This document shows, piece by piece, positions 6,001-9,000 of a DNA stretch of 24,957 nucleotides. The stretch comes from a virus (Duplodnaviria; Heunggongvirae; Uroviricota; Caudoviricetes), in IMG/VR virus record IMGVR_UViG_2711768002_000002; one strand, written 5' to 3'. Made by a program: the position numbers. Numbering within the stretch: position 1 is the first letter of the stretch; every line of letters begins with the position of its first letter.

Positions 6001-9000
6001 TCCGTAATGGACGTCCTGATTTCAGCCAGGTCAGGCGCAAGCTGACCGTTATCAATCTGCGTCCACAGCTCCTGAGCCAGATGGGTTTTCCCTATCTCGC
6101 CTTTGAAAAAATCCAGATAACCGGATGCATCATCACTCGGCTGACCAACAGCCTCCACGAATGCCGATTTGCCAACGGTGTTCACACTGCGGATATAAAA
6201 GTAATAATCATGGCCCGGTTTGATATTGATACTGGCGGCTATCCAGTACAGCGCCGTGCCAAGATAGCGTGCTGTGGTTTCAACCTGCCTGATATCCGCA
6301 ATCCGCTTTTCCGAGAACCAGAACTCAAACTGTACCGTCGGATCATAAACCGCAAGATGCGGCGTGGCGGTTATCTGAAAATAGCCCGGCGTCAGCTCAA
6401 TCCGCGACAGCGCTGCCGGTGCGGCAATCCGGAACGATACCGACGCCGGATCGCCCTGCTGCCCCCACGCATTTACTGCCCGGACTGTCAGCCTGTAGTT
6501 CCCCAGCGCCAGTTGTGTGAAGCGGTAAGTGGTTTCCGTCGTCCGGGCCGTGCTGACCAGCCGCTCACTGCCGTCATCCGCTGTTACGGTCAGACGGAGC
6601 AGGAAGCTCACGCCCTTCACCACCTTCGGCGTGTCCCAGCGCGCCAGCACCTGATATTCCCCGCTGTCTGCGGTGACTTCGGCAGTCAGGTGCTGCACCG
6701 CTGGCGGCGTGACACCATTCACCGTGCCGCTCTGGTCGCCGTCAAAGTGCGCCCCGTTATCCACGATGGCTTCTTTTTCCGGCACATGCTGCACGGCGGT
6801 GATGGCATACGTGCCGTCGTCGTTCTCACGGATACTCACGCAGCGGAACAATCGCTGGTGCAGCGTCGGCAGCTTCAGCCCCCACACGCTGTATTCAGCA
6901 ACACCGTCAGGAACACGGCTCACTTTTACCTTCACGCCGTCGGTGACGGACTGGACCTCCACGCTGACCGGATTCCCCTGCCCGTCAACCAGGCTTATCA
7001 GCGTGGTGCCGGAGGATGGCAGCGTGATTTCACGGTCGAGCGTCAGCGTCCGGGTCTGGCTGTTCACCGCCAGCACGCGCCCGCCGGTGCGGATACCGGC
7101 ATAGTCATCATCGCAGATTTCAATGACATCGCCCGGTACATGACGAAGCCCTTCAGCACCCACGCTGAAATCCACGGTCTGCGTCTCCAGCAGTTCCGTT
7201 TTAATCAGCCACAGCCCGGCGCGGTGTGCCTGCCCCCGGCTGGTACAGCCAAAGGCATCCATCTTCGTGACGTTACGACCGTAACGGACAATGGCCTGCG
7301 TATCCTCCACAAGCTCTGTCGCCGTCTCCCAGCCGTTATCCGGGTCAATCCAGTTCACCTCAACGGCATTATGGCGGTCTTTCAGGGCGCTGAAACTGTA
7401 GCGGAACGGCGCGCCATCATCCGGCATCACCACATTACTGCGGTTATAGGTCCACACCTTATCCGACTGTCGGTCCTGCACGAACGTCAGCGTCTGCCCG
7501 TTCCATACCGGCATACAGCGCCCATTTGTCCACATCCGCCGCACCAAGACGTTTCCCCATGCCATAGCGCGGATGGGTCAGCATATCCCACAGACACCAG
7601 GCCATGTTGTTGCTGTATGCCGGTTTTAACGTTCCGTCCCAGATACCGCTGTATTGCCGCGTCTGCGGATTATAGTTCGACGGCACCTGCAGAATGCGCC
7701 CGCGAAGATGATAATTACGGCTCACCTGCTGGCTGCCGAACTGCTCCGAATCCACCTGTACGCCGACCAGTGCCGTGTTCGGGTAGCACTGTTTCACATC
7801 GATGATTTCGGTGTATGACGACCAGAGCGTTTTGTTCTGCAGCTGGTCTGTGGTGCTGTCCGGCGTCATTCTGCGCATCCGGATATTAAACGGGCGCGGC
7901 GGCAGGTTATCCACCACCACCGAGGCCAGATACTGCGAGGTGGTTTTGCCCTTAATGGTGATGTCTTTTTCCGTCACCCAGCCACCGTTACGCTGTATCT
8001 GAACCAGCAGGCGAACTTCAGACGGATTCCTGTCTCCCTTTGAGGTGGTTTCCACCAGTGCCTGTACACCGAAGGTAAAGCGCAGACGGTCGATGTTTGC
8101 CGACGTGATGGTCCGGGTGATCGGCGTGTCATATTTCACTTCCGTACCCAGCACCGTCTCGGAGCCGGAGGATTCAAATCCCTCCGGCGGTGACTGCTCC
8201 TGCTCACCTGCCCGGAACACCACCGTGACGCCGGAGATGTTGGTATTCCCCTCATTGTCCAGCACCGGCGTACTGTTCAGCAGCACGCTTTTTAATCCAT
8301 CCACCGGACCTTCAACCGGCCCTTCGCTGATGGCATCGATCACACTCAGCAGCTGCGTGGACTTCAGGTTGTCCTTCGCTTCGCGCGGGGTATGCCCCTT
8401 ACTGCTGCCTTTACCCATTCGTCATGCTCCATAAACGATAAAACCGCCCGGAGGCGATTTCACATAAAACATTTTGCATCAGCGACCAATCACCACAACC
8501 TGACCACCGTCCCCTTCGTCTGCCGTGCTGATCTCCTGAGATACCACACGTGACCCCACGCGCATTTCACCATACAGAACAGGCATAACATTGCCCTGGG
8601 CAACCATGTTATCCAGTGAGGAGAAATAGGTGTTCTGCTTACCGTTATCCGTTGTCTGTGTGCGGGGAGTTCTGGCTTTCGGTGCCAGCATCTGAGCCAC
8701 ACCGCCGAGCACCATACTGGCACCGAGAGAAAACAGAATGCCGGTCATACCACCGGCACCAATGGCAGCCCCCCATGCTGCAAGGGTGGCTCCGGCGGTA
8801 AAGAATGATCCGGCAATGGCGGCTGCTCCCAGGACAATCTGGAATACACCACCTGACTTGGCCCCGGCGACTCTGGGAACAATATGAATCACAGCGCCGT
8901 CAGGCAGAGCCTCATGTAACTGTGCCGTTAATCCGGACGTGCTAACATCCTGCCCGGCAATACGCACCTGATACCAGCCGTCGCTCAGCTTCTGACGAAA

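Follow-up and report, generated by a model that had tools for sequence, protein, structure and literature searches.

Why is the tail-tip gene J of this lambda-like prophage read in two overlapping frames, and was it broken in the bacterium or in the assembly? The window, by which we mean the whole stretch of DNA analysed here, was found by exact-protein look-up to coincide from end to end with one database record, CWVF01000062.1 (24,957 bp), which belongs to the Shigella sonnei draft GCA_001253535.1, and the deposited S. sonnei proteins from the J locus are CSH25564.1 and CSH25550.1. It holds the late-gene arm of the prophage on the minus strand, with terminase, portal and capsid genes first, then the tail genes as far as tfa, the tail order being H-M-L-K-I-J-lom-stf-tfa both in the window and in its relatives. 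J lies between I and lom/stf, the placement expected of a lambda gpJ gene. The features on which the question turns are the following.

13259..10698, minus strand, gene H
9150..8479, minus strand, gene I
8418..5061, minus strand, gene J, whole span
7459..8418, minus strand, J ORF1, 319 aa: gpJ residues 1-302 in native form, followed by 17 codons out of frame and the stop (CSH25564.1)
5061..7565, minus strand, J ORF2, 834 aa from the ATG at 7565, the longest ORF
4990..4508, minus strand, gene lom
1414..833, minus strand, gene tfa

The ORF list agrees with an earlier note on this DNA, in which J was described as split into two overlapping ORFs, one reading from 8418 to a stop at 7459 and one with its first start at 7565; they lie on one strand and have about 100 nt in common. 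ORF1 follows J to ...DVDKWALY, where its native part ends, and then passes, as had been described, through 17 unrelated codons to the stop at 7459. In ORF2 native sequence (gpJ residues 347-1165) begins at 7520 with RCMPVWNGQ, and the database gene call takes a later ATG, at 7514, giving a product of 817 aa (CSH25550.1). The single uninterrupted frame of about 1130-1165 codons that characterizes lambda gpJ is absent, its place being taken by ORFs of 319 and 834 aa. No N stands at the split, the nearest N runs being at 3074-3194 and 9328-9760, which bears out the earlier note on this point too. The gpJ domain set is complete in the intact S. sonnei allele and is spread here over both frames: ORF1 carries FNIII-A_GpJ (residues 86-207), and ORF2 carries Phage-tail_3, with the first 17 profile positions gone, followed by Ig_J, Ig_J_second, Phage_Tail_Tip and Ig_GpJ_C.

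The identity of the gene is clear from its comparison with lambda gpJ, the tip attachment protein J, for which several structures exist (8IYK, 8K35 and others). The intact S. sonnei gpJ is 82% identical to the lambda protein overall and near-identical over residues 1-830, the C-terminal third, receptor-binding domain included, being the part that diverges; it matches chain J of structure 8IYK. Pfam architecture and the gene order I-J-lom-stf-tfa are likewise those of lambda, whereas the gene in the window is without residues 303-346 and out of frame. Structures of the lambda tail tip, 8IYK and others, resolve the region that it lacks.

The alignment to lambda J that the earlier note had proposed, here extended to an Escherichia coli J and to S. 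sonnei J, reveals a single indel in the gene, a gap of exactly 140 bp. Lost with it are residues 303-346 (VIGQYCDQ...SDFCSAM), 44 aa, in keeping with the earlier estimate of about 44 missing residues of lambda J; that a deletion and not a single-base indel was at work was also correctly seen, although its size had been put at about 130 bp. Since 140 is 3x46+2 and not a multiple of three, the frame was shifted as well. A single-base or homopolymer-type indel can be discarded outright, as one corrected base cannot restore residues 303-346, nor does such a correction bring J back into a continuous frame across the junction, the outcome that the earlier note had named as telling against its own reading. 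Phage-tail_3 occupies residues 330-498 of the intact protein, and it is the deletion that trims its first 17 profile positions. The point at which the two parts of the gene meet is as follows.

7512..7521, minus strand, junction: lone retained copy of the decamer GCGCTGTATG, of which intact J has two copies 140 bp apart, with the intervening 140 bp gone

Every intact J carries GCGCTGTATG at two sites, J nt 898 and 1038, whereas the window keeps one copy (7521..7512). The lost segment is thus bounded by a direct repeat of which exactly one copy remains, the hallmark of a deletion between short direct repeats. ORF1 translates this remaining decamer as A-L-Y, ORF2 as R-C-M; because both frames share it, the matching frames overlap rather than sit 2 nt apart, as had been claimed. 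Sharing of 10 nt at arbitrary breakpoints is far beyond chance, about 1 in 10^6 by our own arithmetic. Intact J has only six direct repeats of at least 10 bp within 600 bp, and among all the gene's repeats of at least 10 bp the GCGCTGTATG pair belongs to the two with the closest spacing.

How common, then, is the deletion? The same prophage is present, 99.7-100% identical, in 18 other S. sonnei assemblies, Ss046 and 53G included, and the J region is uninterrupted in 18 of 18. J is called as one gene of 1165 aa in all but three of these, two with fragmented calls (L009 and L017) and one for which no call is listed (L006). Thirteen of the 18 loci were fetched by way of the exact gpI and the exact truncated Lom, and they include the complete genomes Ss046 (CP000038), 53G (HE616528), CP023645, CP019689 and LR213458; within this set J is one 1165-aa gene in 10 of 13, the exceptions being the three just named, of which L009 has a call of 1151 aa and L017 a split one. 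More broadly, at least 1000 contigs carry the intact S. sonnei J allele. Exact matching of the two split products among some 15 billion proteins gave a single contig for each, the window's own. For comparison, the exact gpI is indexed in 605 collection blocks and the exact truncated Lom in 1212.

At the DNA level, a 38-mer across the junction was compared with 5,426 complete E. coli genomes, in which there are about 15,000 J-like places, and matched none of them; since the halves of this 38-nt probe are below the megablast word size, intact genes cannot seed with it. A longer query of 81 nt was uninformative against phages and E. coli genomes, as both halves of it match an intact gene and the two matches were merged into one place. 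The exact junction pattern was also without a match in GTDB representative genomes and in IMG/VR, and the absence from the former places the source genome outside the species-representative set. Close relatives do not share the deletion, which is absent from 18 S. sonnei copies, nine contigs with the substitution S55N among them; a very recent private event is still compatible with this.

These nine contigs deserve attention of their own. S55N, a non-synonymous change in the J of the window, recurs on nine contigs that share its ENA batch of S. sonnei drafts, there in an unbroken J of 1165 aa, and none of the S55N contigs examined has a split J. In one of them (L020) this J follows another tail module, whose tape measure is 1077 aa long and whose tube protein also differs, and in another (L022) the same J is followed by an intact lom of 199 aa. 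A J gene behind another tail module, or beside an intact lom, points to a second J copy, and the sublineage appears to have at least two lambdoid prophages with near-identical J, as seen in sister isolates rather than in the isolate of the window. Where two near-identical J genes occur, short-read contigs collapse and break; judged from the sister isolates, J is therefore in a repeated region, ambiguous for short reads, of the kind in which assembly artefacts arise. The six remaining SNPs in J, and the deletion, are private to the window, and a repaired version of its J (S55N plus A370T) is absent from the protein collection.

The SNPs are themselves unevenly placed. Against the standard S. 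sonnei prophage the window shows 20, of which 19 are in 1..9327, the tail-tip half, and one is in 10208..19027. Most are private to this assembly and clustered: seven at 3043-3070, three at 4089-4110, two at 4694/4715 and three at 8080-8092. Most of the alleles are also those seen in J, lom and stf of other lambdoid phages. Descent from a divergent lineage of S. sonnei was rejected as the source of most of the private SNPs; they are confined to the tail-tip half, at the 19 sites of the tail-tip half Ss046, 53G and ten other genomes agree with one another, and the only SNPs common to sister assemblies are S55N and two sites in lom. Two groups within J are set out below.

7451..7537, minus strand, junction tract: G at 7537, C at 7528 and A at 7451 (gene strand), absent from other S. 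sonnei copies and found in other lambdoid J
8080..8092, minus strand, synonymous SNP patch in J: 8080, 8086 and 8092, private, matching the alleles of lambda and of E. coli MLI023K1

The three SNPs of the first group (7537, 7528 and 7451) are 16, 7 and 61 nt from the junction, and the nearest S. sonnei-specific alleles, at 7564 and 7395, bound the tract. As judged by these alleles, the junction falls within a short stretch, in its present state about 90-170 nt long, that is foreign to the resident prophage; non-resident bases flanking a junction are what an assembly artefact would be expected to leave. A similar picture is offered by stf, where the seven private mismatches at 3043-3070 fall within 31 nt of the edge of a gap. 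When these mismatches were compared with alternative internal stf repeat units, the best alternative site still had 2 mismatches.

The gap in stf is one of three, each differing in length from the S. sonnei reference.

3074..3194, no strand, scaffold gap in stf: 121 N against 209 bp in the reference (-88)
9328..9760, no strand, scaffold gap in K: 433 N against 389 bp in the reference (+44)
10088..10207, no strand, scaffold gap in L: 120 N against 287 bp in the reference (-167)

The NCBI record itself contains all three N runs, which marks them as gaps of the scaffold whose sizes were estimates. The window is otherwise co-linear with S. sonnei genomes, apart from the gap in J, the lengths of the N runs and the clustered SNPs. 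J is thus found in a draft scaffold with gaps close by, a further feature expected of an assembly artefact.

Taken together, these observations suggest that the 140-bp deletion is probably a false join, made during scaffolding or gap filling of a short-read draft, and not bacterial DNA, a reading to which we assign a rough probability of 0.7 on the comparison of sequences. The earlier note had left open whether J was genuinely inactivated or the assembly had collapsed, and it is the artefact side that we favour, since a single scaffolded draft has the deletion, against more than 1000 contigs of this prophage, and since the junction lies in a non-resident tract and shows a 10-nt overlap, the minimum that GapFiller accepts. 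GapFiller extends a gap edge one nucleotide per step, with a closure check each time (PMC3446322). For closure the extensions have to share at least n nucleotides (10 by default), and the length inserted may depart from the estimated gap by no more than 50 nt (PMC3446322). The overlap at the junction, 10 nt, equals this default n. The Sanger pipeline combines Velvet, SSPACE and 120 GapFiller iterations and was used on 299 S. sonnei isolates; its authors warn that greedy tools "can lead to false joins" (PMC5320598). That GCA_001253535.1 was itself made by a Velvet/SSPACE/GapFiller pipeline is suggested by its accession style and batch; the accession was not found in the supplements of the pipeline paper (PMC5320598).

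A plausible course of events can be proposed. Short-read contigs would have broken or collapsed in the L-K-I-J-lom-stf region, leaving a gap of roughly 230-300 bp within J. The gap filler would then have extended both edges with reads drawn in part from another J-like copy, and such reads from a paralogous J would account for the three foreign alleles beside the junction, the same signature being seen next to the unfilled gap in stf. The gap would have been declared closed once the ends shared 10 nt, that is, GCGCTGTATG, which J contains twice. If its size had been underestimated, as were those in stf (by 88 bp) and L (by 167 bp), a closure 140 bp too short would have passed the size check and the correct one would have failed it. 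Both the program that made the join and the order of these events are what we infer. The case resembles false closures of the GapFiller/SSPACE type in its mis-sized N gaps, 10-nt join, foreign flanks, multi-copy region and restriction to one assembly; it differs in that program and parameters are here reconstructed, and in its need for a coincidence of timing, as both extending ends must stop at the repeat copies simultaneously. We count this coincidence against a false join, and likewise that no comparable false deletions were found in sister assemblies of the same batch, and that a 10-bp direct repeat with its copies 140 bp apart is a classic substrate for slipped-strand deletion.

The last point leads to the most serious rival, a real deletion private to this isolate, produced by RecA-independent slipped-strand mispairing between the GCGCTGTATG copies in one lambdoid prophage or in one of two J copies, which we regard as unlikely although it has several observations to its credit. 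Short-direct-repeat, RecA-independent slipped-strand deletions are known from the deletion hot spots of lacI in E. coli, and the event in J is like them in its exact repeat bounds, in the one copy kept and in a spacing within a few hundred bp; unlike them, it may be the work of software, and no relative has inherited it. Exactly one copy of the repeat was retained, as slippage would have it, and the pair involved is among the two closest-spaced repeats of at least 10 bp that J has to offer. Moreover, the same prophage shows that this mode of decay operates, as is evident at the end of lom.

4514..4519, minus strand, lom deletion junction: 83 bp lost between copies of CGCCAG at the 3' end of lom, in all S. 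sonnei copies of this prophage

The lom deletion is genuine and old: genuine because it is common to every resident S. sonnei prophage copy examined, with its product in 1212 blocks. It is like that in J in being bounded by a direct repeat of which one copy is kept, and in leading to a frameshift and a truncated product (160 aa, not 199), yet it is found in every resident copy examined, whereas the deletion in J is found in one assembly. By our own estimate, one private deletion in J among more than 1000 sequenced copies is not improbable. Against a real event, it occurs in a single assembly and is missing from the nine closest relatives with S55N; its junction carries three private SNPs with foreign alleles, which simple slippage leaves unexplained; the surrounding scaffold has mis-sized gaps and paralogue-like clusters of SNPs; and the length of the overlap is a software default. 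Were the deletion nevertheless real, it might be a very recent loss in one of two near-identical prophages, a snapshot of decay before spread, possibly with a gene-conversion patch from the sister copy, and to this version too we give a minor share of belief. A third reading, that J functions as two genes or through a programmed frameshift and still yields a working tail tip, has in its favour the overlap of about 100 nt between two ORFs of one strand, but it is extremely improbable and we reject it, as 44 residues near-identical between lambda and S. sonnei gpJ are absent, the start of Phage-tail_3 included, close relatives all encode one 1165-aa protein, and the arrangement was seen in no other genome searched (5,426 E. 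coli genomes, GTDB representatives, IMG/VR and about 15 billion proteins).

Overall, the feature is present in the sequence, and the balance of evidence from sequence comparison assigns the deletion most likely to the assembly and not to the organism. The earlier statement that the prophage cannot make infectious tails would require a real deletion, and even so would apply to just one of the apparently two J copies in the sublineage. In that event one copy of the prophage, in a single isolate, would have a disabled tail tip, an ordinary occurrence with no wider consequence. Real or artefact, the event is ordinary, of a known kind and of little biological interest. It does call for caution, in that pseudogene calls for tail genes of lambdoid prophages can, in gap-filled short-read drafts, be products of software. 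Here a chance repeat of 10 nt would have been enough to give a clean-looking "microhomology deletion", and such events, if scored as decay, would inflate estimates of prophage inactivation in Shigella.

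The truncated lom gene is a genuine short-repeat deletion that is lineage-wide. Its product has 160 aa in the window against 199 aa in E. coli relatives, and 83 bp are missing between two copies of CGCCAG. We base this on the presence of the same 83-bp loss in all S. sonnei copies of the resident prophage examined, and on the exact truncated product being indexed in 1212 blocks of a collection of about 15 billion proteins. The deletion in J, on the other hand, is not common to these copies.

Features of the window (genes on the minus strand) and of other S. sonnei loci
4508..4990: truncated lom, with the deletion junction at 4514..4519
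3074-3194, 9328-9760 and 10088-10207: N runs, scaffold gaps of 121, 433 and 120 nt (209, 389 and 287 in the S. sonnei reference)
3043-3070, 4089-4110, 4694/4715, 8080-8092 and 8255: SNP clusters in comparison with every other S. sonnei copy
L020:1-9940 (GCA_001252835.1) and L022:1-4232 (GCA_001252235.1), sister S. sonnei drafts: the same J gene in different contexts
5061..6000, and L005:13200-14230 in another S. sonnei locus: C-terminal third of J
13252..14090: overlapping tail assembly chaperone ORFs, 140 aa with Phage_TAC_2 and 144 aa with Phage_tail_T

Three further genes, stf, K and L, are broken into fragments by the three N runs. The errors in run length are not multiples of three, hence apparent frame changes such as the split of stf, a single 1027-aa gene in the reference, into ORFs 4415..2961 and 2697..1414. 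The alleles of the clustered SNPs are mostly those of other lambdoid phages; 8255 (S55N in J) and 4694/4715 are common to the window and the sister drafts, while the clusters at 3043-3070, 4089-4110 and 8080-8092 are private to this assembly. The clusters look like reads from a paralogous prophage mixed into the consensus.

In L020, J is preceded by a different tail module (a 1077-aa tape measure and a PF18906 tube protein), and in L022 the same J is followed by an intact 199-aa lom, which together indicate that a second lambdoid prophage, whose J is almost the same, is present in this S. sonnei sublineage. Up to about residue 830 the S. sonnei gpJ hardly differs from that of lambda, but its tail-tip fibre and its C-terminal receptor-binding domain have diverged and contain insertions; given this sequence divergence, its receptor may be other than LamB. 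The chaperone ORFs follow the usual G/GT layout of lambda, and by analogy a programmed -1 frameshift would be expected there.

Another S. sonnei draft (L007:4900-8330, AAUYHQ010000006.1) has a tape-measure gene cut down to 797 aa, with com/mom-like (Mu-type) genes immediately upstream of it where the head and tail-shaft genes would otherwise stand. This points to a rearrangement, or to the joining of another prophage at H. In three JBEAA* assemblies of S. sonnei (L009, L014 and L017), H, I, J and stf are among many fragmented genes of the same prophage. There the genes are broken by 1-nt indels relative to other genomes, a pattern that resembles long-read errors left uncorrected more than a biological difference; such indel-ridden assemblies are a further way in which genes of this prophage come to be miscalled as pseudogenes.
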